A stretch of DNA of 64,000 nucleotides from Candidatus Levyibacteriota bacterium. Its GTDB lineage: Bacteria; Patescibacteriota; Microgenomatia; Levybacterales; UBA12049. The stretch lies in NCBI GenBank assembly GCA_052034235.1, contig JBPOIT010000002.1, positions 5,939 to 69,938 on the forward strand, written 5' to 3'. This document shows, one piece after another, positions 5,667 to 61,761 of this stretch; the first letter of the stretch is position 1; every line of letters begins with the position of its first letter. Made by a program: the position numbers and the translations under genes. The notes beneath the pieces are model-generated. The model saw nothing but the letters and a program-made list of their open reading frames with translations. It was not told the origin of the DNA and did not search any database.

Positions 5667-6470
5667 TTATAGTCTGAGTATGAGGAATGCCACCGTGATA
5701 CCGGCAAGGATAATGATGACCACGATTGAGATGTTTAAAATTATACCAAAATGGATAATTTTACTCGCAGCAGGGTTTCTTCCGAGAGCTTCAACACCTT
5801 TTGCTGCAGTTCTGCCAAAGGTCATAAAGCCTAAGACAAATGACGCAATGACGACAAGTGCCGCCACGATATATTTAAAAACCGGAGTAGGGGCTTCTTT
5901 CGTCGGGAGAAGCGCGAACTTTAAAATATCTGTAAGTGAGCCAAGAAGTGTTGGTTTGGCGTTAAAATAATGTAGATTTAGTTCTACAGCAATTTTCTCA
6001 GTTTGTTGAGGATTGGGATTGTTAAACTCTTCAAGTGCCATACCTAAAACATATCCATCCTTGGTTGCTTTAACAGCTACGCCTGGGATTGTTGATGTTG
6101 TCAGCAGATCGCCTTTTTTAATTCCACCTTCTTTGGCGGAGACGAGCACATATAGTTTTCCAACAGAAATAACAGGGACACCATTTACGACGTCATCGCT
6201 TGCAAAAAGAATACCAGCATTTTCTGAAACAACACCAATAACTTGTGGATCATAGGGAATATTTGAAAGCTTTGCTCCAGTATTTGCTGAAGAGATAACA
6301 CTTCCATCTTTGACGTTTTTTTCCTGAACCTCTATCATTCTCGCAACGCCAAGTGTGCCGTCAGCCTGTCCGGCAATGTTAGAAGATTGTGCATGCGCAA
6401 CAGGCATTAGCTGAAAAAGTACAAAGCCCACTACAAACACGCTGACTAGTTTTCGTAAAAGGGAGAGCAT
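5667..6470 (-). CDS. Atypical atp-operon protein: signal peptide, periplasmic beta-rich domain, and C-terminal two-helix hairpin resembling an ATP synthase c-subunit loop but lacking the ion-binding carboxylate
   Basis: Start chosen at the internal Met (MLSLLRKLVSVFVVGFVLFQLMPVAHAQ, a signal peptide); the ORF track's 6602 start is unlikely. The C-terminal FGRTAAKGVEALGRNPAASK loop between two hydrophobic helices resembles the c-subunit EGIARQPE loop. No GxGxGxG motif and no Glu/Asp in TM2. Confidence 0.4.
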   Translation of the reverse strand: MLSLLRKLVSVFVVGFVLFQLMPVAHAQSSNIAGQADGTLGVARMIEVQEKNVKDGSVISSANTGAKLSNIPYDPQVIGVVSENAGILFASDDVVNGVPVISVGKLYVLVSAKEGGIKKGDLLTTSTIPGVAVKATKDGYVLGMALEEFNNPNPQQTEKIAVELNLHYFNAKPTLLGSLTDILKFALLPTKEAPTPVFKYIVAALVVIASFVLGFMTFGRTAAKGVEALGRNPAASKIIHFGIILNISIVVIIILAGITVAFLILRL

Positions 6471-6541
6471 ATACGTATCGTAACAAATACCTTGCAGTAT
6501 CCGCAAATACAGCTCTGTCTCTTTACGATGCTCTTTGTCAT

Positions 6542-7123
6542 ATGTTACAAGTAAGTAGTATGCCGCAAGACCCGAAAGCTCCAGTTCTTGAAGATGACAC
6601 AAAAGAACCTATGTCGCTTATGGTTGAACATCGTTTGCCATGGCTTATTATTGGTCTTCTTGGCGGACTTGGCCTCACTTTTGTTTCGGCAAGATATGAG
6701 AATTTACTTTCTCAGAACATATCACTCGCATTTTTTATCCCAGTTATTGTGTACATGGCTGATGCTGTTGGAACACAAACTGAAACTGTCTATATTCGCA
6801 ATCTCAATAAAAAGAGAACGCATTTTTCAGTCTATTTGATAAAAGAGGTAGGGCTTGGTATCTTTTTAGGGTTGCTATTTGGTGCGCTCACTGGTGTTTT
6901 TGCCTGGTTAGTTTTTCATTCAATAGCAACTGCGCTCAGTGTAGGACTGGCTATGATTGGAACTATGGCGATCGCTCCGGTTATCGCACTTGTTGTGCCG
7001 ACTATTTTAAAAATGGAGCATAAAGATCCAGCCATTGGTTCAGGACCGTTTGTAACAGTAATACAAGATTTCTTAAGTCTTGTTATCTATTTTTTCATTG
7101 CAACGGTAATAATCTTCAAGTAG
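6542..7123 (+). CDS. MgtE-family divalent cation transporter, transmembrane domain only (no N-terminal or CBS domains)
   Basis: MgtE TM-domain hallmarks: RLPWL, FIPVIVYMADAVGTQTETVYIR (the FIPxxxxxxGNxGxQS equivalent), and DPAIGSGPFVTVIQDFLSLVIYF. The true start may be an internal Met near 6611. Confidence 0.6.
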   Translation: MLQVSSMPQDPKAPVLEDDTKEPMSLMVEHRLPWLIIGLLGGLGLTFVSARYENLLSQNISLAFFIPVIVYMADAVGTQTETVYIRNLNKKRTHFSVYLIKEVGLGIFLGLLFGALTGVFAWLVFHSIATALSVGLAMIGTMAIAPVIALVVPTILKMEHKDPAIGSGPFVTVIQDFLSLVIYFFIATVIIFK

Positions 7124-7145: not shown

Positions 7146-7274
7146 TCAACAGAACTCGCAGGATTTTGCTTTTTTCTTTGTTTTTTTTGCTTTGGTGACT
7201 TTTGTAGCCAAAGCTTTCGCAGCTTTTTTCTTACCTTTTGTTGTACCACTAGAAAAGAGTCCAAAGATAGCCAT
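7146..7274 (-). CDS. Possible small lysine-rich ORF (42 aa, MAIFGLFSSGTTKGKKKAAKALATKVTKAKKTKKKAKSCEFC)
   Basis: Hand-translated ORF below the 60-aa track cutoff, lying in the intergenic gap between the MgtE and P-type ATPase genes. No convincing SD. Very basic composition. Confidence 0.2.
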   Translation of the reverse strand: MAIFGLFSSGTTKGKKKAAKALATKVTKAKKTKKKAKSCEFC

Positions 7275-7304
7275 ATATTTACTCTAAATGAAATTTGTCT
7301 CTAT

Positions 7305-7333
7305 TGTCAAGTGCTTTACATTTCTTTTATAGT
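7305..7333 (+). promoter_or_regulatory. sigma70-like promoter TTGTCA-17-TATAGT for the P-type ATPase gene (predicts leaderless ATG at 7341)
   Basis: -35 at 7305-7310, 17-nt spacer, -10 at 7328-7333; the ATG at 7341 lies 7 nt downstream. Confidence 0.5.
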
Positions 7334-7340
7334 GAATATA

Positions 7341-10034
7341 ATGCCCGAATTGTCTTATTATTCTTTATCTCAAAGTGATCTTCTTACAAAGCTCCAAACA
7401 AGAGAAAGCGGGCTTTCTGATAGTGAAGCTGCAGAGCGGCTTACGAAAAATGGACCGAACACCTTAACTTCTAAAAAGAAAATTTCTGCTTGGTCATTAT
7501 ATTTTCAGCAATATAAAAATACACTGACACTCATCTTAATCATTGCTGCATTTTTAATTCTTTTCATCTATCAGTTTGGTGAGAAAGAACCTTCTGATCT
7601 TATTGAGGCTGGGCTTATTCTCACTATCGTTTTCATGATTACTATCCTGGGATTTGCTCAGGAATATAAAGCTGAAAAAGCAATTGAATCGTTAAAAAAA
7701 CTCCTTGCCTTTAAAGCCAAAGTAAAAAGAGGAGGAGTTGAAAAGGAAATTGATGTTGCTGCACTTGTTGTCGGTGATATCGTTATTTTAGAAGAAGGTG
7801 CAAAAGTGCCAGCAGATATTCGATTGATTAATGTGATGAGTCTGCGCATCAATGAAGCTTCACTGACTGGTGAATCAGTGCCAGTAAATAAGGAAGTGGC
7901 TGAAATTTCAGGAACGCAACAGCTCGGCGATCAAAAGAATATGGCATTTTCAGGAACGGCTGTTACTTCTGGGAGAGCAATAGGAGTTGTTGTAGAGACA
8001 GGAGATAAAACTGAAATTGGAAAAATAGCTCAAAGTGTCGCAGCAACGGTAGATGAAATAACTCCAATTCAGAAACGGCTTGATGAGATCGGTAAGATGA
8101 TTGGCTACATTATCCTCATCATCTGTGCAATCGTTTTTGTTTTTATTATGTTCTTTGCACAAGAATTTGCCCAGCAGCCGTTACTCCAGCGCCTTATCCA
8201 TTCGTTTATTGCAGCAGTAGCTTTAGCAGTGGCAGCAATCCCTGAAGGACTGCCTGCTGTTGTTACGATTTCACTTGCGTTAGGAACGCAGCGAATGCTT
8301 AAGAAGAATGCTTTGGTTCGCAAATTGAATTCTGTTGAAACATTGGGTTCAACAGATACTATTTGTTCAGACAAAACTGGAACACTGACAAAAGGAGAAA
8401 TGACTGTTACGACAATTTATTATGCAGATCAGCTCTATGAAGTTTCAGGTACTGGCTATGACACAGTCGGACAGTTTACTGATAATAAAAAAGTACTCAC
8501 CACATTTCCGTTCCAAGCGCTTCTTCAGGCAGGGCTATACTGCAATAATGCCAAACTGACAAACGGAAAAGTTTTAGGGGATCCGACAGAAGCAGCGCTT
8601 TTAGTTAGTGCAGCAAAAGCAGCACTTGCTCAACAAGACGGGGAGCGGGTTTTAGAAATTCCTTTCAGCAGTGAGCGAAAAATGATGTCAGTTGTCATAA
8701 AAACAGGCGATTCATATACACTGTACTCAAAAGGTGCGACTGAAGTTGTCCTTGACCAATGTTTCAGATTGGTAAGTGGTGATACGCAAAGGCCGATTGT
8801 TATTAAGGATAAAAAAGAAATTCTTGAAATAAATCATACCCTTTCGACAAAAGCACTTCGAAATTTAGGCTTTGCGTATAAAACACTTAGCAAAAGCGAA
8901 TTTGAAAAGAACAAAAATAATTACAAAGAATTAGAAAAAGGACTAACATTCCTCGGTATACAAGGTATGATTGATCCTCCTCGCATAGAGGTTAAACCTT
9001 TAATTGAACAATGTGTTTCATCAGGTATAAGAGTAATTATGATTACTGGTGATCATCCTGAAACCGCGAAAGCAATTGCTGGAGAAATTGGTATCAAGGG
9101 AAGTGCCCTGACAGGTACGGAGCTTGATAAAATGGATGAAAAAGCGTTCAGAAAAGCTGTTGAAGAAATTAGTGTCTATGCACGTGTCAATCCTGACACC
9201 AAACTTAAAATAGTTGCTGCATTGCAGGATAATGGTCATATTGTCGCCATGACAGGAGATGGTGTCAATGACGCGCCGGCACTGAAAAAAGCAGATATCG
9301 GCATTGCTATGGGAATAACAGGAACAGATGTCGCAAAGGAAGCTTCTGACATGGTTTTGCTTGATGATAAATTTTCAACCATCATAAGTGCAATTGAAGA
9401 GGGAAGAGGTATATTCCATAATATTAGAAAGTTTGTTGTGTACTTACTTTCATGTAATTTGGCAGAAGTTATTATTGTGTTTTTAGGCGTTGTGATCCTT
9501 CAGGATTTAGTTTTAACAGCAACGATGCTTTTATGGATAAATGTTGTCACCGATGGTATTCCAGCCGTTGCTCTCGGTCTCGATCCGGCTGAAAAGGGGA
9601 TTATGCGATACAATCCAAAGGTCTTCCAGACACAGATTATTAATAAGCGGTTATGGGTTGAAATGGTTGTATTTGGTATGTTCTTAAGCGTTTTTGTTCT
9701 TTGTGCTTACATAATGAATTTATCAGAGGGAATGCGAGCTGCTCAAAGTGCTGCCTTTATGAGTCTTGTTATCTTCGAACTGCTCAGCATCTTTTTAATC
9801 CGCTCACGATATCGTGTGTCTTTCTTTTCTAATAAATGGCTTTTGATTTCTGTTGCAGTAACACTCATGCTGCAACTTTTCATCACGTATGTTCCGTTTG
9901 TTGCAAATCTCTTCGCAGTAAACCCAGTACATATGAATGATTGGTTCTTTATTCTCGTTTCATGTATTTGGTTATATTTAGCATTTCAACTATTGCAGCA
10001 GGCTCTGAATAAGATCCCTGCGCTTAAGGACTAG
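7341..10034 (+). CDS. P2-type cation-translocating P-type ATPase (Ca2+/Mg2+-ATPase-like)
   Basis: DKTGTLT phosphorylation motif, [21 protein letters not shown] hinge, TGES actuator (LTGES), 10-TM topology. The track start 7311 is a GTG; the ATG at 7341 (MPELSYY) fits the promoter. Confidence 0.85.
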
Positions 10035-10103
10035 GGTACAATATAGCTGACTTGCTAAATATAAATTTATACGCTAGTGTTTATATAGAACTGTTTTCTG
10101 TCC

Positions 10104-10826
10104 ATGGATCTCGAAGCACAAATTGCTCAAACATCATATAATTTCCTCATGGTTGCCAGTATCCTGCTCTCAATCCTGGTTACTATTTCTCTACATACCA
10201 AACATCCAACTGAGCATTTAAAGAAATTTCTCTATTGGTCTATTGTGGCTGTTGTTATTATTCCGACGTTATATATGAGTGTGTCTACCATTTATCTCAA
10301 TGTCATATCATCAAGTGGTGGTCCAGTACACTGGCATGCAGATGTAGAAGTATGGAATTGCGGTAAAGAAGTAGAGTTAAAAGATCCGCAGGGCGTATTA
10401 AGTAATAAAATCGGAACAGCAACCCTTCATGAGCATAATGATAAGCGCGTACACTTAGAGGGGGTTGTCGTGCATCCTGAGGATGCGAGTTTAGGTAAAT
10501 TCTTTAAAGTAATTGATGGTGATCTTACCGACAATTCAGTTGTTGTCCCAACCAATAGTGGTCCATTGCCGCTGACGAGTGGAAGTGTCTGTGCTGATGG
10601 GCAAGTCGCTCAAATGCAGGTTTTTGTTTATCAAACCGATAGTGATGATTATTATTCACAAACCAAAATTGTCGATCCTGCACGATATATCATTTCTCCA
10701 TATTCAGCGGTACCCAAAGGAGATTGTGTGATTGTTGAATTTGGACCTGTGAGAGATCGGACAGACAAAGTTTGCAAAAGTTACCAAGTTGCAGAAAAGA
10801 TTGGTAAACTGAAAGGAGAGCGTTAA
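10104..10826 (+). CDS. Hypothetical membrane-anchored protein (2 TM plus Cys/His-containing extracytoplasmic domain)
   Basis: Two N-terminal TM helices followed by a soluble domain with HWHADVEVWNCG, CADGQ, GDCVIV and VCKSYQ. No recognisable family. Confidence 0.4.
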   Translation: MDLEAQIAQTSYNFLMVASILLSILVTISLHTKHPTEHLKKFLYWSIVAVVIIPTLYMSVSTIYLNVISSSGGPVHWHADVEVWNCGKEVELKDPQGVLSNKIGTATLHEHNDKRVHLEGVVVHPEDASLGKFFKVIDGDLTDNSVVVPTNSGPLPLTSGSVCADGQVAQMQVFVYQTDSDDYYSQTKIVDPARYIISPYSAVPKGDCVIVEFGPVRDRTDKVCKSYQVAEKIGKLKGER

Positions 10827-10830
10827 TTCT

Positions 10831-11535
10831 ATGGGCATAGATGTACCTACATTATCAATAGTTGTTATCTCAGCGTTAATTGATTCTATTAACCCATGTG
10901 CCATTGGTGTTTTGATTCTAATGGTTTCAGTTGTTCTTGGTGGAAAAGGTTCAATGCGACGACTGCTTATGTTGGGGGGATTATACATCGGCGCGATTTT
11001 CTTAACGTATCTTTTGGCAGGATTAGGGCTTATTTACTTCCTTGCAAACGTACCTATGTATGTTTCTGAATATCTCGCGCTTCTTGTCGGTGCATTTGTT
11101 ATCATTGCTGGCCTTTTGGAGATAAAAGATTTCTACTGGTATGGAAAAGGTTTCTCTCTACAAATTCCACCTGTTTTTGCTGAGAAGATACATAAATACT
11201 CAAAGAATGTTACCGTTCCAGGTGTTATGTTTTTAGGTGCATTTATCGCGGGGGTTGAATTACCATGTACTGGAGCTCCATATCTTGCCATCATTACACT
11301 TTTGTCGTTGAATTTTGATATTTACGCATTTGGCCTTCTTATTCTTTACAATGTTATTTTTGTTTTGCCGCTTATTATTATTTTGTTGCTAGTTGCGGGA
11401 GGTGTGAAAGTAAGTAAGATCAAAAAGTGGAAACAAGCAAACAAAGGGTATATGAGATTTGCAATTGGGTTTATGCTTATCGGTTTGGGCTGGCTCCTGA
11501 TCCTGATAGCAAACGGTACTATTAATTTTGGCTAA
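10831..11535 (+). CDS. ccdA: CcdA/DsbD-family thiol-disulfide transporter membrane protein
   Basis: Six-TM protein with the two family-typical Cys in TM helices, within INPCAIG and ELPCTGAPYL motifs (cf. SPCVLP/TPCTxP of CcdA/DsbD). Confidence 0.55.
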   Translation: MGIDVPTLSIVVISALIDSINPCAIGVLILMVSVVLGGKGSMRRLLMLGGLYIGAIFLTYLLAGLGLIYFLANVPMYVSEYLALLVGAFVIIAGLLEIKDFYWYGKGFSLQIPPVFAEKIHKYSKNVTVPGVMFLGAFIAGVELPCTGAPYLAIITLLSLNFDIYAFGLLILYNVIFVLPLIIILLLVAGGVKVSKIKKWKQANKGYMRFAIGFMLIGLGWLLILIANGTINFG

Positions 11536-11541
11536 TCATAT

Positions 11542-11814
11542 ATGATGAAACATATTGTTAAACGTAAAGGACATACTGAAGATTTTGATGAGCGCAAACT
11601 TTATGGGAGTGTTTTTTCGTCTCTTATGACGCTTCGAATGGCTGATGAAGAAGCGGAGGCAATCAGTCATATGGTGACAGATGATGTAAAAAAAGCAATT
11701 GCTGATAAAAAAGAGGTAACATCACAAACTATTCATACAGAAACTGCGAAAAGTCTTAAAAAATACCACCCAGACGCTTCTTATATGTACGACACGCATC
11801 GTGACTTGTCATAA
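11542..11814 (+). CDS. Stand-alone ATP-cone domain protein
   Basis: HIVKRKGHTEDFDERKLYGSVFSSL matches the ATP-cone V-KR-G--E-F---KL pattern (compare this window's NrdR: VIKRDGRREQYNREKLKAGLL). 90 aa with no other domain. Confidence 0.55.
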   Translation: MMKHIVKRKGHTEDFDERKLYGSVFSSLMTLRMADEEAEAISHMVTDDVKKAIADKKEVTSQTIHTETAKSLKKYHPDASYMYDTHRDLS

Positions 11815-11820
11815 AGCCTT

Positions 11821-13197
11821 ATGATCTCTTTTAGAAACCACCGTTATGATTATGACCTCATCGTCCTTGGAAGCGGTTCAGGGGGAAGTGTTGCAGCTCA
11901 TTACGCCCAATCCCTTGGCAAGAAAGTTGCTATTTTTGAGGCAGAAGAGGTAGGCGGAGAATGTCCTAATTATGCATGTGTCCCGACAAAGGCGATGCTT
12001 CACGCTGGGAGAACGTATGAAACTGTACAAAATGCAAAACTATTTGGCGTCAATGTCTCTGATGTTACATTAAATTATAATGCAGTCAAACGATGGAAAG
12101 ATCTAGTCGTTACAAGAACAGGCACCAATCATGGCAAAGCATCGTTTGAAAGAGACGGTATTCATTTGATTCATGAGAAAGCAGTTTTTACCTCTCCTCA
12201 TGAAATTCAAGCTGGTAGCAAAGTTTATAGCGCCGCAAAATTCCTCATTGCAACTGGTGCCAAAAATTTTGTACCTCCAATTACGGGACTTGAAGAAGCC
12301 GGTTATATCTCTTCAAAGGAAGCCTTAGATCTTGATAGTGTACCTAAGGCAATAATGATTTTTGGTGGAGGAGCAGTTGCGTGTGAATTTGCTGAGATCT
12401 TTGCAAATTTTGGTTCCAAAGTGACAATCGTTATCAGAGGAGATAAGCTGCTGAATAAAGAAGATACTGAAGTTAGTGAACTTATTGAAGCATTGTTTGT
12501 AAACAAAGGAATTAAAGTCCTCAAAGAAATGGCAGTAGTAAAAGTAGAGAAGAAAGATGGGAAAAAAGCAGTTCATTACCACAGCAAAGAGCGCGATTTC
12601 GTTGCTGAATATGATGAGATCCTGATGGCAGCGGGCAAAAGGGGGAATATTGATTTCAATCCCGAAAAAGCAGGTTTGAAAATCGATAAAGGAAGACTTC
12701 TTGTTGATCGTCATTTGTTGACCAACGTTTCTCATATCGCAGCAGCAGGAGATGTTGCAGGTCCATATCTGTTTACACATACAGCATCTTATCAAAGCAA
12801 TATCGCGGGGATTAATTTATTTGCACGTGACAAAGTGAGCGTTGATTATACTGTTGTCCCCAGATGCGTTTTTGTGACACCTGAGGTTGCCTCTGTCGGG
12901 ATAAGTGAAATTGAGGCTAAAGAGAAAGGGATTGCTATCAAAAAAGGCATTATGGCAATTGGTATGCTTGGTCGTGCTAATACCTCCGATGATTTTGATG
13001 GCTTTGTAAAAGTGATTACCGATAAAAAAGATGTTATTATCGGTGCCTCAATTGTTGCACCAAGAGCGGGGGAAATGATTCATGAACTAGCTCTCGCAAT
13101 TCATAGTAAGATAAGAGCACAAACGATTGCGAACATGATTCATGCATACCCCACTTATTCGGAGGGCGTAAAAATCGCCTGCAGCTTCGTTTCCTGA
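11821..13197 (+). CDS. Class I pyridine nucleotide-disulfide oxidoreductase (lipoamide dehydrogenase/glutathione reductase/MerA family)
   Basis: FAD-binding GSGSGG motif, redox-active GGECPNYACVPTK (CxxxxC), C-terminal dimerisation-domain His-Glu dyad HAYPTYSE. No MerA-type C-terminal CC pair. Confidence 0.8.
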   Translation: MISFRNHRYDYDLIVLGSGSGGSVAAHYAQSLGKKVAIFEAEEVGGECPNYACVPTKAMLHAGRTYETVQNAKLFGVNVSDVTLNYNAVKRWKDLVVTRTGTNHGKASFERDGIHLIHEKAVFTSPHEIQAGSKVYSAAKFLIATGAKNFVPPITGLEEAGYISSKEALDLDSVPKAIMIFGGGAVACEFAEIFANFGSKVTIVIRGDKLLNKEDTEVSELIEALFVNKGIKVLKEMAVVKVEKKDGKKAVHYHSKERDFVAEYDEILMAAGKRGNIDFNPEKAGLKIDKGRLLVDRHLLTNVSHIAAAGDVAGPYLFTHTASYQSNIAGINLFARDKVSVDYTVVPRCVFVTPEVASVGISEIEAKEKGIAIKKGIMAIGMLGRANTSDDFDGFVKVITDKKDVIIGASIVAPRAGEMIHELALAIHSKIRAQTIANMIHAYPTYSEGVKIACSFVS

Positions 13198-13210
13198 CCG
13201 TTATAGGCTA

Positions 13211-13238
13211 TTGACAACCTCTTAAAAAAAGTTATAAG
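13211..13238 (+). promoter_or_regulatory. Near-consensus sigma70 promoter TTGACA-16-TATAAG in the intergenic region ~240 nt upstream of dnaG
   Basis: -35 at 13211-13216, -10 at 13233-13238. It would transcribe ~150 nt ending at the 13392-13417 terminator. Confidence 0.4.
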
Positions 13239-13391
13239 CTGGATATGTCTACTAAATGCATTAAGTATACTTACCAATAAAAATGAGATAAATCTAGATA
13301 TCAAATTTTTAAAGGGAAATATATAAAAAGAAATGAAAAAGAATAAGAAGAGTATGTGAAGAGCATATAAACTTATTCCAATTCAACAAAA

Positions 13392-13417
13392 AAGTCTGTC
13401 AAAAGCAGACTTTTTTG
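13392..13417 (+). terminator. Rho-independent terminator (AAGTCTG-TCAAAAG-CAGACTT + T6)
   Basis: 7-bp stem at 13392-13398 and 13406-13412, 7-nt loop, U-tract to 13416. Confidence 0.65.
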
Positions 13418-23262: not shown

Positions 23263-25533
23263 ATGACTTCTCGTTCATATCAAGTAAATGGAATGCACTG
23301 TGCGAGCTGTAGTTCCATTATCTCCAAAAAACTTAACAAACTTCCAGGTGTGGATTCATGCTATGTTAATTTCGCCACAGAACAGGCACGTATTTCGTAC
23401 GATTCTGAAAAGGTAACAACAGAACAGATGAATCATGAAATTAATAAATTAGGATATAACCTTATCTCCCATGAAGAAAATCATAATGAATCGATGGATC
23501 ATTCAGAGCATTTAGGACTTACGCAATCAAAAGAAGACAAGCTCAAAGAACTTGCAAACCTTGAATCAAAAGTTGCATTTGTTTTACCAATTACTCTTAT
23601 GGTGTTTTCCCTTATGTTGTGGGATATCTTGTCTCAAGTTGGAGGGTTTCCTTCATTGCCAATTGAGATGGAGCTTTTTACAGCGATTTTATTTGTGTTA
23701 GCATCAATCGTTTTGTTTTGGATTGGGAGACCATATATAGATGCAGTTGTAAGATTTGCAAAATATCGTGTTTCAAATATGGACTCTTTAGTAGGAATAG
23801 GAACGCTGACTGCGTATCTTTATAGCAGTATCATATTTTTATTCCCACAGATAAAGACAGCATTATCACTTCCTGACTATACCTATTTTGATATCACTAT
23901 TGTTGTTATTGGTTTTATAACATTAGGCAAGTATCTTGAAACCCGTTCAAAACTGCAAACTGGTGAAGCGATTGAAAAACTCATCAACCTGCAAGCAAAA
24001 ACGGCTTTGGTTTTAAGAGATAACAAAGAAGTTCAAATTGCACTTTCAGAAGTACGTGTCGGAGATATTATGATCGTCAAGCCAGGAATGAAACTTCCTG
24101 TTGATGGAATTGTTTTCAGCGGGAGTTCTTCTATTGATGAATCAATGATAAGTGGAGAACCATTGCCTGTTGAGAAAAAGAAAGGTGATAGTGTTATCGG
24201 CGCGACTATCAATAAGCAAGGGAGTTTTCAGTATCGTGCAACCAAAGTTGGTTCCCAAACAATGCTTGCTCAAATTATCAAACTTGTTGAAAATGCGCAG
24301 GGGTCAAAAGCGCAGATTCAAAACCTTGCAGATAAAGTCTCGGCTGTCTTTATCCCAAGCGTTCTTATTATTGCTGTTGTCACGTTTTTTCTTTGGTTAA
24401 CAATTGGTGCATATTTTCTGGGGATGACAGCTGCATTCTCGTATGGGCTCTTGGCATTTGTTGGTATTCTTGTTATTGCCTGTCCTTGTGCATTAGGTCT
24501 TGCAACACCAACTGCAATAATCGTCGGTGTAGGAAAAGGTGCTAGTCATGGGATATTAATAAAAGACGCAGAGAGTCTGGAAAATTTACATACAATAGAT
24601 ACCATCGTTTTTGATAAGACAGGAACTATTACAAATGGAACACCCACGGTCACAAACATTGTCTCATTTGAAAAATCTTATTCAGAAAAAGAGGTACTGC
24701 AGTATGCCGGCAGTCTTGAAAACCTTTCAGAACATCCATTAGCAAATGCAATTGTTCAGAGTTTCAAAAAAACAGGAGGTTCTATACTTAAAGTAAATTC
24801 ATTTAAAGAACATGAAGGGATTGGTGTTGAAGGGATAGTTGAGCAAAAAAAGATGATTGTTAGAAAGCCCTCAAAAGACGAACAACAACTTGCAGCTATC
24901 AGTACAATGCAGTCTCAAGGAAACACCGTTGTTGTTTTGGAAATAGAGAAAAAAATTGTTGGAATACTTGCTCTTAATGACACTGTTAAACCGAACGCAA
25001 AACAAGCTATTAATCGATTACATGATATGGGTATAAAAACAGTAATGCTGTCAGGTGACAATAAACAGGCAGCAGCCTTTATTGCCGAAAAAGTGGGTAT
25101 TGATGTCGTTAAAGCAGAAGTGCTTCCTCAAGAAAAAGCGCACATAATCAAGCAGTTACAAAAAGATGGAAAAAATGTCGCAATGGTAGGGGATGGTATC
25201 AACGATGCACCCGCGTTAAGTGAAGCAAAAGTAGGTTTTGCGATGGCAACAGGTTCAGATATCGCTATTGATTCGGCCAGTATCACTATTCTTGGTGGAT
25301 CAATAGAAAAAGTTCCGCAAGCAGTTATGCTTTCAAGAGCAACAATTCGTACAATAAAACAAAACTTGTTCTGGGCTTTCATATATAATATTATTGGTAT
25401 TCCATTAGCTGCAGGCGTGTTGTATCCGCTGTTTGGATTGTTTCTCAATCCGGTTTTTGCGGGATTTGCGATGGCGTTATCATCTGTGTCTGTTGTTGGT
25501 AATTCGTTATTATTAAGGAAAGGGAAAATTTAA
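23263..25533 (+). CDS. copA: Copper-translocating P1B-type ATPase
   Basis: N-terminal HMA GMHCASC, CPC ion-translocation motif (ACPCALG), [19 protein letters not shown] motif (SEHPL). Confidence 0.92.
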
Positions 25534-25534
25534 T

Positions 25535-26548
25535 ATGGATCTACTTGTTATTTTCATTACTGGTTTAACTGTTGGCGGGCTTACATGTTTAGCTGTCCAA
25601 GGTGGCCTCCTTGCATCAGTTATTGCTGCGAGAGAAGAGGAGTCAACAAGAAACAAAAAAGCGCATGCCTTTTACGCGACTGGAATCTTTTTGAGTTCTA
25701 AATTAGTAGCGTATACACTTTTGGGTTTTTTTCTGGGTGCCTTTGGAGGAGCAATAAATATCAGTGATACAGTCCAAAGTATCATGCAGCTATTAGCCGG
25801 TGTTTATATGATTATTGTTGCGCTCAACTTACTCAATATTCATCCCATATTCAGATATGCAATTATTCAGCCGCCAAGATTCTTAACTCGAATGGTCCGA
25901 AATCAGTCGAGATCAAAAGACATATTTTCACCTGCGCTTTTGGGAGCCATGACAATATTTATTCCTTGCGGCACAACGCTTGCAATGGAAACTTTAGCAA
26001 TCAGTAGCGCCAATGCTTTTACAGGAGCTGCGATTATGGGCATATTTACACTGGGAACAATACCATTATTTTTCGGAATTGGAGTCGTGACATCAGTACT
26101 AGGAGATATGTATAAAACGAGATTTCTTAAACTTGCAGCAATAGCACTAATTTATTTGGGGCTGACATCTATTAACGGTGCGTTTATTGTGCTTGGTTTT
26201 CCACTTAATTCTCAAATATTTGCACAAAACACCGAACAGCCTGTGCAAAAAAATGAAAAGAAACTGTACAGTGAAGCGCCTAAACAGCAGAACATAACGA
26301 TACGCATTACTTCAGAGGGGTATTCTCCGAATTATATAAAAGTGAAGAAAGGCCAACCTGTCACATTGACGCTCAACAGTAAAGATGCATTCAGTTGCGC
26401 TCTCGCGTTTCGTATTCCTGAATATGGTATCAGCAAAAATTTACATCCAACAGAAACACAGACTGTTACTTTTACTCCGCAAAAGACAGGGAAAATTCCA
26501 TTTGCTTGCTCGATGGGGATGTACACGGGGGTGATTGAGGTAATATGA
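25535..26548 (+). CDS. Membrane protein (about 6-7 TM with a TM Cys, GGLTCLAVQGG) carrying a C-terminal cupredoxin-like beta domain; probable copper-handling accessory protein
   Basis: Translationally coupled to copA (its start lies 1 nt after the copA stop) and overlaps copZ by 4 nt. The C-terminal ~90 aa (ITIRITSEGYSPNYIKVKKGQPVTLTLNS...FACSMGMYTGVIEV) look like a cupredoxin fold without an obvious His ligand. Confidence 0.45.
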   Translation: MDLLVIFITGLTVGGLTCLAVQGGLLASVIAAREEESTRNKKAHAFYATGIFLSSKLVAYTLLGFFLGAFGGAINISDTVQSIMQLLAGVYMIIVALNLLNIHPIFRYAIIQPPRFLTRMVRNQSRSKDIFSPALLGAMTIFIPCGTTLAMETLAISSANAFTGAAIMGIFTLGTIPLFFGIGVVTSVLGDMYKTRFLKLAAIALIYLGLTSINGAFIVLGFPLNSQIFAQNTEQPVQKNEKKLYSEAPKQQNITIRITSEGYSPNYIKVKKGQPVTLTLNSKDAFSCALAFRIPEYGISKNLHPTETQTVTFTPQKTGKIPFACSMGMYTGVIEVI

Positions 26549-26769
26549 GCATCATAAAAAAGAAATTTACTATCGAAGGGATGCATTGCACTTCGTGTGC
26601 AATGAATATTGATTTTGACCTAGAAGATCTTCCTGGAATAAAAATAGCAAAAACAAGCTATGCGAAACAACAAACACAAGTTACGTATGATGAAGAAAAG
26701 GTAACTGCAAAAAATATTTGTGAAACTATCGGAAAAACCGGATATAAAGCATCTCTCGCCACAAAATAG
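26545..26769 (+). CDS. copZ: Copper chaperone (HMA domain)
   Basis: GMHCTSCAMNI metal-binding motif; 74 aa. Confidence 0.8.
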   Translation: MSIIKKKFTIEGMHCTSCAMNIDFDLEDLPGIKIAKTSYAKQQTQVTYDEEKVTAKNICETIGKTGYKASLATK

Positions 26770-50124: not shown

Positions 50125-50153
50125 GAACCTCTCAGGTGAGAGGTTCTTTCTTT
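50125..50153 (+). terminator. Terminator/attenuator-like hairpin GAACCTCTC-AGGT-GAGAGGTTC + TTTCTTTGTT immediately before the trpE ATG
   Basis: Perfect 9-bp stem at 50125-50133 and 50138-50146, with a U-rich tail ending 4 nt before the ATG at 50157. Confidence 0.55.
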
Positions 50154-50156
50154 GTT

Positions 50157-51506
50157 ATGAAACAATTACAAAAAATTTGTATTACACAAAAACCAACATA
50201 CCGTAAATTGGCAGAAGATGTCGATTTCTTTGAACTGTTTGCAAAAGTAGAACGGGAGTTTGATACCTGTTTTCTGCTTGAATCATTAGGAGAAGAAGGG
50301 AAGTTTTCAAGATATTCAACAATTGGGTTTGCCCCTGAACATCTTATTTCAGCACAAAAAGAAACGTTATTTGTGGATGATGAAACGTTTGAAACAACAA
50401 ATCCATATAAAGCACTAAGAGAGATGATGCCTGAAGAAACGATTGCTCGTGAATACGCGGGAGGACTTGTCGGGTATGTAAGTTATGATGCTATTAACTA
50501 TTTTGAACCGACAATTAAAGCAAAAGTGCATGACGATTTTGATCAGTTTATGTTTGGCGCGTATACGGATGGCGTAGTTTTTGACAAATTAACCAATGAG
50601 TTATTTTATTTTTACTACACGGAGGATCGAAGCCAAATTTTAAAACAAATCATGAAAAAATCACTTCCTACTCAATCTGTGCAGGTTACATTTGCAAATG
50701 ACAGTCTTACGAAAGGGGAACATAAACAGATTGTTGAACAGGTTAAAGAACAAATTCGTGCAGGAAATATCTTTCAATGCGAGGTTGGATTTAAATCGAA
50801 GTACAAAGTAAAAGGAGACTTGTTGCAAATCTATAAAAAGCTGAGAAAAGAGAACCCCTCTCCGTTTATGTATTATCTGAAATTTGGCAAAAAGAAAATC
50901 ATTGGTGCGAGTCCTGAACTGCTCTTTTCGCTTCGAGATGGTGAAATGACCACCAAACCGCTTGCCGGAACAATTAAACGCGGCAAATCTGAGCAGGAAG
51001 ACCAACAGCTTGCAAGAATGTTGCTTAACGATCCTAAAGAAATTGCTGAGCACAGAATGCTTGTTGATTTACACCGCAATGATATCGGCAAAGTTGCGCA
51101 GTTTGGTACGGTGAAAGTGCGTGAACTGATGTCTGTTAAAAAGTTCAGTTATGTGCAGCATATTTCAAGCGAGATTGTCGGACTCATGAGTCAGAAAGAG
51201 GATATGTTCTCAGCGTTTGCTTCCAATTTTCCAGCAGGAACACTAACAGGTGCTCCCAAGATTGAAGCGATGAAAATTATTGATGCGAACGAAAAAGAGG
51301 CGCGCGGACCATATGGCGGGGCAGTCGGGCATTTCGGTTTTAATGGAGATTGTACTTTTGCCATAGCTATCAGATCACTTTTTGCCTCAGGTGAAAAGGC
51401 TTACACCCAAACATGCGGAGGGATTGTGTTTGATTCTGATCCTGACAAAGAGTATCAGGAGATTATCAATAAAAAGAAAGCGATGAAAGGAGTTTTGGAA
51501 GCATGA
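50157..51506 (+). CDS. trpE: Anthranilate synthase component I
   Basis: Chorismate-binding domain; GAVGHFGFNGDCTFAIAIRS and GGIVFDSDPDKEYQE C-terminal signature. The track start 50136 is a GTG inside the hairpin. Confidence 0.9.
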   Translation: MKQLQKICITQKPTYRKLAEDVDFFELFAKVEREFDTCFLLESLGEEGKFSRYSTIGFAPEHLISAQKETLFVDDETFETTNPYKALREMMPEETIAREYAGGLVGYVSYDAINYFEPTIKAKVHDDFDQFMFGAYTDGVVFDKLTNELFYFYYTEDRSQILKQIMKKSLPTQSVQVTFANDSLTKGEHKQIVEQVKEQIRAGNIFQCEVGFKSKYKVKGDLLQIYKKLRKENPSPFMYYLKFGKKKIIGASPELLFSLRDGEMTTKPLAGTIKRGKSEQEDQQLARMLLNDPKEIAEHRMLVDLHRNDIGKVAQFGTVKVRELMSVKKFSYVQHISSEIVGLMSQKEDMFSAFASNFPAGTLTGAPKIEAMKIIDANEKEARGPYGGAVGHFGFNGDCTFAIAIRSLFASGEKAYTQTCGGIVFDSDPDKEYQEIINKKKAMKGVLEA

Positions 51507-61287: not shown

Positions 61288-61761
61288 ATGCATTGTCCAT
61301 ATTGCGGAGCTAAGAATTCAGAAGTTGTAGAGACACGAGACAGCGCGGACATGGATACGATCAGGAGACGAAGAGCGTGTCTTTCTTGCACAAAACGTTT
61401 TACAACGTATGAGCGAGTCGAGAATGTCCAGCTCGTTGTTATCAAACGTGACGGGAGACGAGAACAATATAACAGAGAAAAACTGAAAGCAGGACTTCTC
61501 AGAGCATGTGAGAAGACATTGATACCTGCAGATGTCATTGAAAAGGTCGTGACAGACATAACAAGAGAATTACGAGGATTAGGTTCACTTGAAGTAGAAA
61601 GCACCATTATAGGCGAATTGGTGGCGAGAGAACTAAAAAAACTTGATAAGGTAGCATATATCAGATTTGCAAGCGTCTTTAAAAGATTTATGGATGCTGA
61701 GGATTTTGAGAAAGAATTAAAACAATTGGTACTAAATACCAAAAACAAACCAACATTATGA
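61288..61761 (+). CDS. nrdR: Transcriptional repressor NrdR (zinc ribbon plus ATP-cone)
   Basis: MHCPYCGAKNSEVVETRDS...C..C zinc ribbon; VIKRDGRREQYNREKLKAGLLRACEK ATP-cone. Confidence 0.85.
   Translation: MHCPYCGAKNSEVVETRDSADMDTIRRRRACLSCTKRFTTYERVENVQLVVIKRDGRREQYNREKLKAGLLRACEKTLIPADVIEKVVTDITRELRGLGSLEVESTIIGELVARELKKLDKVAYIRFASVFKRFMDAEDFEKELKQLVLNTKNKPTL

Follow-up and report, generated by a model that had tools for sequence, protein, structure and literature searches.

A conserved gene trio places a stand-alone ATP-cone protein beside a CcdA-like membrane protein in ultra-small bacteria and archaea

The thiol-disulfide transporters of the CcdA/DsbD type, known from the CcdA-ResA/StoA system of Bacillus subtilis, the CcdA-Etrx-MsrAB2 system of Streptococcus pneumoniae and DsbD of Escherichia coli, are small polytopic proteins of the LysE/DsbD superfamily in which two pseudo-symmetric transmembrane (TM) helices each carry a conserved Pro-Cys motif. 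ATP-cones are found in the ribonucleotide reductases (RNRs) NrdA, NrdB and NrdD and in NrdR, where they act through an ATP/dATP-driven change of association or oligomer state (PMC9110341, PMC11226230, PMC5794259). Relatives of both kinds of protein are encoded side by side in the DNA analysed here, a 64,000-nucleotide (nt) stretch (the window) of contig JBPOIT010000002.1 from a Candidatus Levyibacteriota bacterium (GenBank assembly GCA_052034235.1, positions 5,939 to 69,938). Five co-directional open reading frames (ORFs) occupy 7341-13197 of its + strand, all of them confirmed by inspection of the sequence, and encode a P-type ATPase, a two-TM protein termed prot2, a CcdA-like protein, a stand-alone ATP-cone protein and a class I pyridine nucleotide-disulfide oxidoreductase (PNDR). 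A preliminary description had treated the five as one operon supplying the cell surface with reducing power under nucleotide control. Comparison across genomes shows that the core is a trio, prot2, the CcdA-like protein and the ATP-cone, with the ATPase and PNDR as frequent accessories in loci labelled as bacterial. The module probably links the nucleotide pool of the cell with redox or metal chemistry at its surface.

Like the described CcdA/DsbD systems, the locus pairs a small two-Cys membrane protein with a presumed extracytoplasmic partner encoded alongside. The best Pfam match of the window protein, however, is SfLAP/GAP and not DsbD_TM, and its partner is a His/Cys ectodomain of an apparently new fold on a 2-TM anchor rather than a thioredoxin-fold CxxC protein. 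Whereas the known systems rely on thioredoxin alone, a cytoplasmic ATP-cone is present here and, in bacteria, a class I flavoenzyme reductase. The hosts, members of the bacterial candidate phyla radiation (CPR) and of the DPANN archaea, largely lack c-type cytochromes. The cone, for its part, shares with those of NrdR and the RNRs the Pfam domain, the conserved basic N-terminal motif and, presumably, nucleotide-dependent association. It differs in having neither a Zn-ribbon nor an RNR body, in its length of 89-90 residues with a THRD(I/L)S tail, and in its genomic position behind the membrane protein gene instead of with nrd genes. Searches of the literature returned nothing joining an ATP-cone with CcdA, DsbD or Patescibacteria, and neither stand-alone ATP-cones nor this module were found described; the papers that pair ATP-cone with 'standalone' are unrelated.

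The trio was followed in two sets of loci, designated by L numbers. A scan of one genome per species, anchored on the cone, gave 80 loci, of which about 49 carry bacterial labels (mostly CPR) and 31 labels of DPANN archaea; the counts combine scan loci with four fetched earlier, three of which were duplicates, and the 80 are those with a callable cone ORF. The other set came from a metagenome scan with the CcdA-like protein, its denominators being the assessable loci. The top matches of the window itself indicate a genome of the Patescibacteria (CPR) close to Levybacteria. Some taxon labels of metagenome-assembled genomes (MAGs), namely Gammaproteobacteria, Lysobacterales and Limnocylindrales, are probably unreliable, and the archaeal labels are supported by prefoldin and aRF1 genes flanking the trio. 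The CcdA-like gene lies directly 5' of the cone in 78 of the 80 cone-anchored loci, and prot2 lies 5' of the CcdA-like gene in 75. In the set anchored on the CcdA-like protein, 51/51 loci have prot2 upstream; the cone follows downstream in 60/68, a count that a six-frame check raises to 63/68. The linkage of the trio ranks with the tightest to be met in any gene neighbourhood, and the lack of synteny in relatives by which the preliminary description would have been refuted is not observed. Median gaps are -4 nt from prot2 to the CcdA-like gene and 9.5 nt from there to the cone, and the three genes overlap or nearly abut in CPR bacteria and DPANN archaea alike. Of about 150 non-redundant loci, drawn from two domains of life, more than 90% retain the core with varying genes on either side, so the arrangement is far beyond chance; the variable neighbours, which differ by lineage, are unrelated housekeeping genes (SRP54, YkuD, D-Ala-D-Ala carboxypeptidase, epimerase).

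Archaeal copies are 56-69% (CcdA-like), 41-53% (cone) and 35-44% (prot2) identical to those of the window, apart from the most divergent locus, L004 (44/36/32%). As this is as similar as the copies of other CPR classes, the whole trio appears to have moved laterally between CPR bacteria and DPANN archaea. Redox genes occur nearby in several genomes, including a DsbA-like protein (L004), peroxiredoxin and superoxide dismutase (L022), VKOR and DoxX (L043), rhodanese and FMN reductase (L085) and, near L086, MsrA. In L085 (7891-11755), an ArsR-type helix-turn-helix gene, the rhodanese, a major facilitator superfamily transporter and an FMN-reductase/flavodoxin-like gene stand between cone and reductase, an insert with a flavour of sulfur or metalloid stress. 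A VIT1-family Fe/Mn transporter adjoins the trio in three Nano-/Woesearchaeota-like loci, confirmed by Pfam in L063 (8490-9221) and by sequence similarity alone in L064 and L069.

The accessory genes are less constant. The ATPase lies within a few genes of the trio in 42 cone-anchored loci, 41 of them labelled bacterial with L040 as the archaeal exception, and PNDR lies downstream in 32, all labelled bacterial (median gap from the cone, 14 nt); about 50 loci of the set bear a bacterial label. Among assessable CcdA-anchored loci they occur in 16/27 and 20/41, respectively. Both are therefore members of the cluster, as had been proposed, though not obligate ones; a substantial minority of bacteria-labelled loci have neither adjacent to the trio. 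In 18 of 43 cone-anchored cases the ATPase is co-directional with the trio and in 25 it is divergent.

The protein prot2 (10104-10826, + strand, 240 residues) has a confident AlphaFold2 model, with a predicted local distance difference test (pLDDT) score of 92.9. It is predicted to form an N-out hairpin of two TM helices with an extracytoplasmic domain of about 170 residues. The ectodomain matches no PDB entry by sequence or by Foldseek, and the protein matches no Pfam or NCBIfam model. In 128 non-redundant bacterial and archaeal sequences, H76, H78, D80, C86, H109, H111, D113, H117, E119 and C163 are conserved at 96% or more. The five His, two Asp and one Glu are most simply read as a metal site, and C86 and C163 read as one functionally important Cys pair. 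Two further cysteines, C208 and C224, are both present in 110 of these sequences and both absent from the other 18; being kept or lost jointly, they behave as a structural disulfide that is dispensable. The family comprises 462 clusters at 50% identity; lacking a Pfam model and any PDB fold match, the ectodomain may represent a new family of metalloproteins. A Rosetta-stone search for fusions of prot2 with the membrane protein was fruitless, as the long prot2 relatives (431-485 residues) bear an unrelated C-terminal extension that has no Pfam match.

Four nucleotides downstream, the CcdA-like/GAP-family gene (10831-11535, + strand, 234 residues) encodes a protein with about six predicted TM helices. 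Its more than 6,000 relatives are named 'GAP family protein' by NCBI and 'cytochrome c biogenesis protein CcdA' by JGI. Among 15 family members, SfLAP is matched by 14 at E ≤ 1 (best 9.3e-13) and DsbD_TM by four (best 2e-8), and PF02683 is among the precomputed annotations of several database relatives. The protein has the pair of intramembrane Pro-Cys motifs by which CcdA and DsbD are recognised, N21-P22-C23 in TM1 and L144-P145-C146-T147-G148 (LPC146TGAP) in TM4. Neither varies in a set of 32 sequences, and both are conserved at 90% or more in 152 cone-linked ones; a cytoplasmic loop (E97-K99-D100-W103-Y104-G105) is conserved as well. The AlphaFold2 model is helical, with a pLDDT of only 67, and a Foldseek search with so poor a model was uninformative. 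A PDB search with the family profile returned only a DsbA fragment (FFWYG...) at a non-significant E of 0.82, which is not interpreted. Alignment by hhalign with a DsbD_2 protein encoded elsewhere in the window gave a probability of 0.3%, likewise non-significant, though the second Cys falls in register. With its membership of the CcdA family not established by profile or fold, the protein is called 'CcdA-like' here rather than CcdA proper; the assignment to CcdA/DsbD made in the preliminary description stands as far as the two Pro-Cys motifs go.

The third member of the trio (11542-11814, + strand) is a protein of 90 residues that scores 34.3 bits against the Pfam ATP-cone (PF03477; gathering score 25.8) over residues 3-80, a domain also present in all 56 homologues. 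Since those homologues have 89 residues, ATG 11545 may be the true start. The protein contains no Cys and no Zn-ribbon and ends in a family-specific tail, Y-x-Y-x-T-H-R-D-(I/L)-S. A motif H-I-V-K-R-K-G...D-E-R-K is nearly invariant in bacteria and archaea; in 21 sequences V6, G10, D16, R18 and K19 are invariant, and K7 and R8 reach at least 90% conservation. Its aligned counterpart in NrdD is kViKRDG...FDssKi, and the cones of NrdD and NrdR are the only PDB matches of the family profile (E 0.005-0.01). By analogy with RNR ATP-cones, the basic residues of the N-terminal V-x-K-R-x-G...K motif are expected to bind the triphosphate. The window also encodes a canonical NrdR (61288-61761, + strand; Zn-ribbon 67 bits, ATP-cone 64 bits), to which the stand-alone cone has no BLASTP similarity. 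Its score against the NrdR model TIGR00244 is 18 bits, where the cut-off is 124.65, and on these two results a recent duplicate of NrdR was rejected as the origin of the cone. RNR genes also occur near the trio: L028, L031 and L045 have an NrdR-RNR pair about four genes downstream, and L004 has a class II-like RNR about 6 kb upstream.

PNDR (11821-13197, + strand, 458 residues; Pfam Pyr_redox_2, Pyr_redox and Pyr_redox_dim) carries the redox motif GGEC48PNYAC53VPTK, and the context GGECPN[FWY][AG]CVPTK is invariant in the family. The preliminary description had read in it a CxxxxC motif together with a His-Glu dyad. The former is present as C48-x4-C53, but there is no canonical dyad. The C-terminal motif HAY443PTYSE aligns with HAHPTLSE of solved lipoamide dehydrogenases and has Tyr443 in place of the His before Pro-Thr, a position occupied by Tyr or Phe in 29 of 29 relatives and corresponding to the catalytic H452 of human E3. 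The Glu of the HPTxxE motif is retained in the window protein and in most relatives. Lipoamide dehydrogenases come nearest among solved structures as well as among NCBIfam models, yet the score of 374.9 bits against TIGR01350 is below the cut-off of 408.8. With the His replaced as well, the protein cannot be taken for the E3 (dihydrolipoyl dehydrogenase) of pyruvate dehydrogenase. A mercuric reductase was also considered and rejected, as the score against the MerA model TIGR02053 is 347.8 bits (cut-off 454.45) and the C-terminus (...KIACSFVS) has a single Cys, itself not invariant, in place of the MerA Cys-Cys pair.

Thiol systems built on lipoamide dehydrogenase include, besides the E3 of 2-oxoacid dehydrogenases, the Lpd-DlaT-AhpD-AhpC peroxidase of Mycobacterium tuberculosis. 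PNDR resembles them in its closest structures and differs in its active site, ECPN[FWY][AG]C instead of TCLNVGC; moreover, neither the window nor the CPR relatives have E1 or E2 genes nearby. The trio of one Candidatus Iainarchaeum MAG (L073, 5286-9637) interrupts a 2-oxoacid dehydrogenase operon, with E1-beta on one side and E2 (lipoyl) on the other, which deserves attention given the lipoamide-dehydrogenase-like partner enzyme in bacteria. The beta-alpha-beta motif of PNDR varies by lineage, with VT(I/L)VNRS in the Levybacteria type (VTIVIRGD in the window) and Glu or Asp in the Saccharibacteria type (VHIAE, VHIIE, IYLSD), which look NADPH-like and NADH-like, respectively.

At the other end of the cluster, the ATPase gene (7341-10034, + strand, 897 residues) begins at the conserved ATG 7341 and not at GTG 7311, the start given by the ORF tool. 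Its product matches Cation_ATPase_N, E1-E2_ATPase, Hydrolase and Cation_ATPase_C in Pfam; Pfam thus bears out the P-type ATPase named in the preliminary description, as it does the ATP-cone and PNDR domains. Among NCBIfam models the protein scores best with those of the SERCA, PMR1 and PMCA Ca-ATPases. The PMCA-type TIGR01517 is matched with 519.7 bits, above its cut-off of 507.05, and the SERCA-type model with 670 bits, below its cut-off of 703. The nearest solved structures are Listeria LMCA1, SPCA1 and SERCA, and the motifs DKTGT, PEGLP and NVVTDG can be read. The protein is thus a member of the P2-type Ca2+ ATPase family by core motifs and family score, and its ion specificity (Ca2+/Mn2+-like) is predicted.

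Upstream of the ATPase and divergent from it, an ORF of 42 codons on the - strand (7146-7274), absent from the ORF list for its shortness, encodes a Lys-rich small protein (MAIFGLFS...SCEFC). By tblastn it has full-length counterparts, 50-90% identical and likewise placed, in L171, L006, L089, L088, L007, L005, L090, L086 and L092; in L088 the homologue stands divergent from prot2 instead of the ATPase. FGL at the N-terminus and CEFC at the C-terminus never vary, and the versions in L013 and L014 have 59-60 residues with an additional Cys-rich insert, CxxC...CCxxCC. The protein has no Pfam match, and a TRASH/YHS-type identity accordingly found no support there. Further upstream, an MgtE-like divalent-cation channel of 193 residues consisting of the TM domain only (6542-7123, + strand; Pfam MgtE 81.7 bits) matches the TM part alone of TIGR00400. 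A gene of this kind is found 5' of the ATPase in eight cone-anchored loci and also in L085, L093, L114, L116 and L171, which makes it an optional upstream neighbour of the cluster. Between it and the genes of an F-type ATP synthase operon, which lies upstream of the cluster on the opposite strand, a 311-codon ORF (5667-6602, - strand) starts with TTG and is probably over-extended; its L171 homologue has 223 residues, its C-terminus is hydrophobic and it has no Pfam match.

The ATPase and the 42-residue protein are transcribed from a predicted back-to-back promoter region (7281-7333, both strands), recognised by a consensus scan and by conservation in six relatives. On the + strand, a -35 box TTGTCA (7304-7309) is followed after 18 nt by a -10 box TATAGT (7328-7333); on the - strand, TTGACA (7310-7305) is followed after 18 nt by TAGAGT (7286-7281). 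The two share a palindromic -35 (TTGTCAA), which, like TATAGT and both start codons, is unchanged in the six relatives while the bases around them drift. As each -10 box ends 7 nt before its ATG (7341 and 7274), both mRNAs are probably leaderless. A second candidate promoter or operator lies ahead of the trio (10052-10092, + strand), where the ATPase-prot2 spacer contains TTGCTA (10052-10057), 17 nt and TAGTGT (10075-10080). The block ATACGCTAnTGTTnATnTAGA is preserved in the window and in L171 and has variant forms in L005, L085 and L013, with the rest of the spacer divergent; the consensus promoter scan did not report it. It weakly suggests that the trio probably has its own promoter, separable from transcription of the ATPase, which would fit the genomes with an ATPase in the opposite orientation.

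The tight spacing of the five co-directional genes (69, 4, 6 and 6 nt) was described correctly at the outset, as was a terminator behind them. An intrinsic-terminator-like hairpin (13387-13417) with a 13-bp stem folds at -15.6 kcal/mol (z = -4.98; none of 200 shuffles folds as well). It is bordered by symmetric A6/U6 tracts and is possibly bidirectional. The hairpin is located 190 nt past the PNDR stop codon and is followed by dnaG and rpoD. The intervening 190 nt (13198-13386) are AT-rich and free of ORFs; in L171, the closest relative, a 513-codon gene with no Pfam match is placed between PNDR and dnaG, and for that reason the interval in the window may be a deletion scar. A single operon of five genes is only one of the observed layouts, given the 25 of 43 ATPase genes that are divergently transcribed and the conserved promoter-like block ahead of prot2.

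The arrangement is tentatively explained, at somewhat less than an even chance, by a nucleotide-gated thiol-disulfide relay of the CcdA type across the membrane, with the trio at its heart. Given their overlapping, translationally coupled genes, prot2 and the CcdA-like protein would most likely sit in the membrane as a single complex of 2 + 6 TM helices, in which the buried Cys23 and Cys146 of the latter would exchange with Cys86 and Cys163 of the former. Electrons would most probably pass outward and keep the surface metallo-domain, or its substrate, reduced. On the cytoplasmic side, the Cys-free ATP-cone would be a regulatory subunit that binds ATP/dATP and, by a shift in its oligomeric or binding state, opens or closes the cytoplasmic face of the membrane protein. 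Because thioredoxin feeds both CcdA-type proteins and ribonucleotide reductase, such a dATP/ATP sensor could arbitrate thioredoxin electrons between ribonucleotide reductase and the envelope. In many CPR bacteria, the adjoining NAD(P)H flavoenzyme may supply or consume the relayed equivalents, and the Ca/Mn-type P2 ATPase would share the control region, sometimes with the MgtE-like channel and the small CxxC peptide.

Thiol chemistry is suggested by the invariant Pro-Cys motifs in two TM helices, the DsbD_TM matches in part of the family, the conserved C86/C163 of prot2 next to a dispensable second pair, and the redox genes nearby. Nucleotide sensing is suggested by the Pfam ATP-cone above its threshold, the retained basic K-R...K motif and the profile matches to NrdD and NrdR. 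Several observations weigh against a relay of this kind. The CcdA-like protein of the window reaches 30.7 bits against SfLAP/GAP (PF11139), under the gathering score of 35, and does not match DsbD_TM (PF02683) even at E ≤ 1; neither by sequence nor, with its poor model, by fold does it match solved CcdA. The cluster encodes no thioredoxin-fold CxxC partner and prot2 is not thioredoxin-like, while PNDR lacks the canonical catalytic His and is not beside the trio in archaea and many CPR loci. Five CcdA-anchored loci and L086 contain no cone within the fetched DNA, with all motifs of the membrane protein intact; in these the protein retains 81-86 of 86 conserved positions and an undegraded cytoplasmic loop, which is uninformative on docking. 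Finally, the metal-flavoured neighbours (P-type ATPase, MgtE, VIT1, small CxxC peptide) would suit a metal cargo equally well.

A relay of thiophilic metal, or metalation of an exoenzyme, with no electron transfer is the main competitor, if a rather unlikely one. The membrane Cys pair would then be metal ligands, as in MerT, and the CcdA-like protein, whose LysE superfamily also includes CadD, NicO, MntP and TerC, would move a transition metal in or out. Its extracytoplasmic metal-binding partner would be prot2, comparable to MerP or to a metalated exoenzyme, and the flavoenzyme, whose catalytic His is replaced by an aromatic residue as it is in MerA, would reduce the metal in the cytoplasm. 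Companion cations would be left to the P2 ATPase, MgtE or VIT1, and the ATP-cone would tune flux to the nucleotide or energy state. In the logic of the mer operon (MerP-MerT-MerA), too, a protein that binds metal outside the cell is combined with a membrane protein whose cysteines are essential and with a cytoplasmic class I pyridine-nucleotide oxidoreductase lacking the catalytic His (Tyr in MerA); PNDR scores 348 bits against MerA. The invariant His5/Asp2/Glu cluster of prot2 fits such a relay, as do the 42 loci with an adjacent ATPase, MgtE in at least nine, VIT1 in three archaeal loci, and the small CxxC peptide that is conserved divergent from the ATPase and has Cys-rich variants.

A further parallel is found in the window itself, where a P1B heavy-metal ATPase with an HMA domain is followed, after 1 nt, by the DsbD_2 protein mentioned above and then by an HMA (CopZ-like) protein of 74 residues (23263-26769, + strand). 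The DsbD_2 protein, of 337 residues, has TM cysteines (GGLTC, IPCG) and a fused C-terminal cupredoxin-like domain. This CopA/DsbD_2-cupredoxin/CopZ operon likewise sets a P-type pump beside a two-Cys DsbD-superfamily protein with a metal-binding domain outside the cell, but its pump is P1B, its external domain is a fused cupredoxin, and neither an ATP-cone nor a flavoenzyme is present. Other details set the cluster apart from mer or speak for electrons rather than metal as the cargo. Neither is prot2 homologous to MerP nor the membrane protein to MerT, PNDR has neither the C-terminal Cys-Cys of MerA nor NmerA and misses the cut-offs for both MerA and lipoamide dehydrogenase, and the Phe that replaces Tyr in many relatives argues that the residue is not a conserved metal ligand. 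The ATPase is of the Ca type by its nearest structures and is no heavy-metal pump. The Pro-Cys motifs of TM1 and TM4 are a signature of electron-transferring DsbD/CcdA proteins, no DsbD-family member is to our knowledge a metal carrier, and the thiol and oxidative-stress neighbours (DsbA-like protein, VKOR, peroxiredoxin, rhodanese) indicate redox chemistry. A role specific to mercury is argued against by the wide distribution in CPR and DPANN, including many groundwater MAGs.

That the five genes do not form one pathway at all, the trio being self-contained and the ATPase and reductase mere bystanders through shared regulation or inherited CPR gene order, is unlikely. Such independence would account for the divergent ATPase in 25 of 43 cases, for the other genes that separate the ATPase in L001, L024, L041 and L090, for the one to four genes inserted before PNDR in L011, L033, L077, L082 and L085, and for the 103-nt gap ahead of PNDR in L171. 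The conserved promoter-like block before prot2 and the lack of an ATPase or PNDR beside the trio in archaea-labelled loci, save for the ATPase in L040, point the same way. Yet the adjacency of ATPase and PNDR recurs in Levybacteria, Daviesbacteria, Terrybacteria, Microgenomates and Saccharibacteria, distances over which unselected gene order normally decays; the ATPase stays near in both orientations, which argues for selection on proximity, and the cone-PNDR spacing is short. Still less probable is a cone that keeps the fold without sensing nucleotides and serves the membrane protein only as a chaperone or as a subunit for structure or assembly. Its 34 bits against Pfam, compared with 64 for the NrdR cone of the same genome, its lack of BLASTP similarity to the latter, its PDB profile matches at E of about 0.005-0.01 only and its own invariant C-terminal tail could all be so explained. 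A purely structural subunit would not need the V-K-R-x-G...F-D-x-R-K motif, however, and this is nearly invariant across bacteria and archaea.

Nucleotide-regulated export of reducing power, as first suggested, is thus plausible, and a thiophilic-metal relay fits the same anatomy. The components come from known superfamilies; the new partners are the surface domain without detectable fold match and the ATP-cone subunit. CPR bacteria and DPANN archaea have tiny genomes and mostly lack respiratory chains and quinones, and a trio conserved in well over a hundred of these ultra-small organisms is spread unusually widely across both groups. For the handling of surface disulfides, redox or metals at contact with the host, it is a strong candidate. 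ATP-cones have been seen as the allosteric switch of ribonucleotide reduction, and a family tied in over 90% of sampled loci to a CcdA-like protein would extend the concept to membrane processes. A bolder proposal, doubtful as a whole, is that the stand-alone cone gates a membrane thiol (or metal) relay as its dedicated nucleotide sensor, with the unmatched surface metallo-domain served by the relay; this would be the first role of an ATP-cone outside nucleotide metabolism. The cassette would then have moved between CPR and DPANN as a shared adaptation of ultra-small, quinone-poor episymbionts, coupling envelope redox or metal chemistry to the ATP/dATP pool scavenged from their hosts. The trio consists of three small, expressible proteins with clear testable residues.

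Elsewhere in the window, a gene for anthranilate synthase component I (50136-51506, + strand) is followed by co-directional ORFs to about 58401. The run may be a tryptophan-biosynthesis operon, its first gene alone being annotated; such an operon is unusual for a CPR genome.

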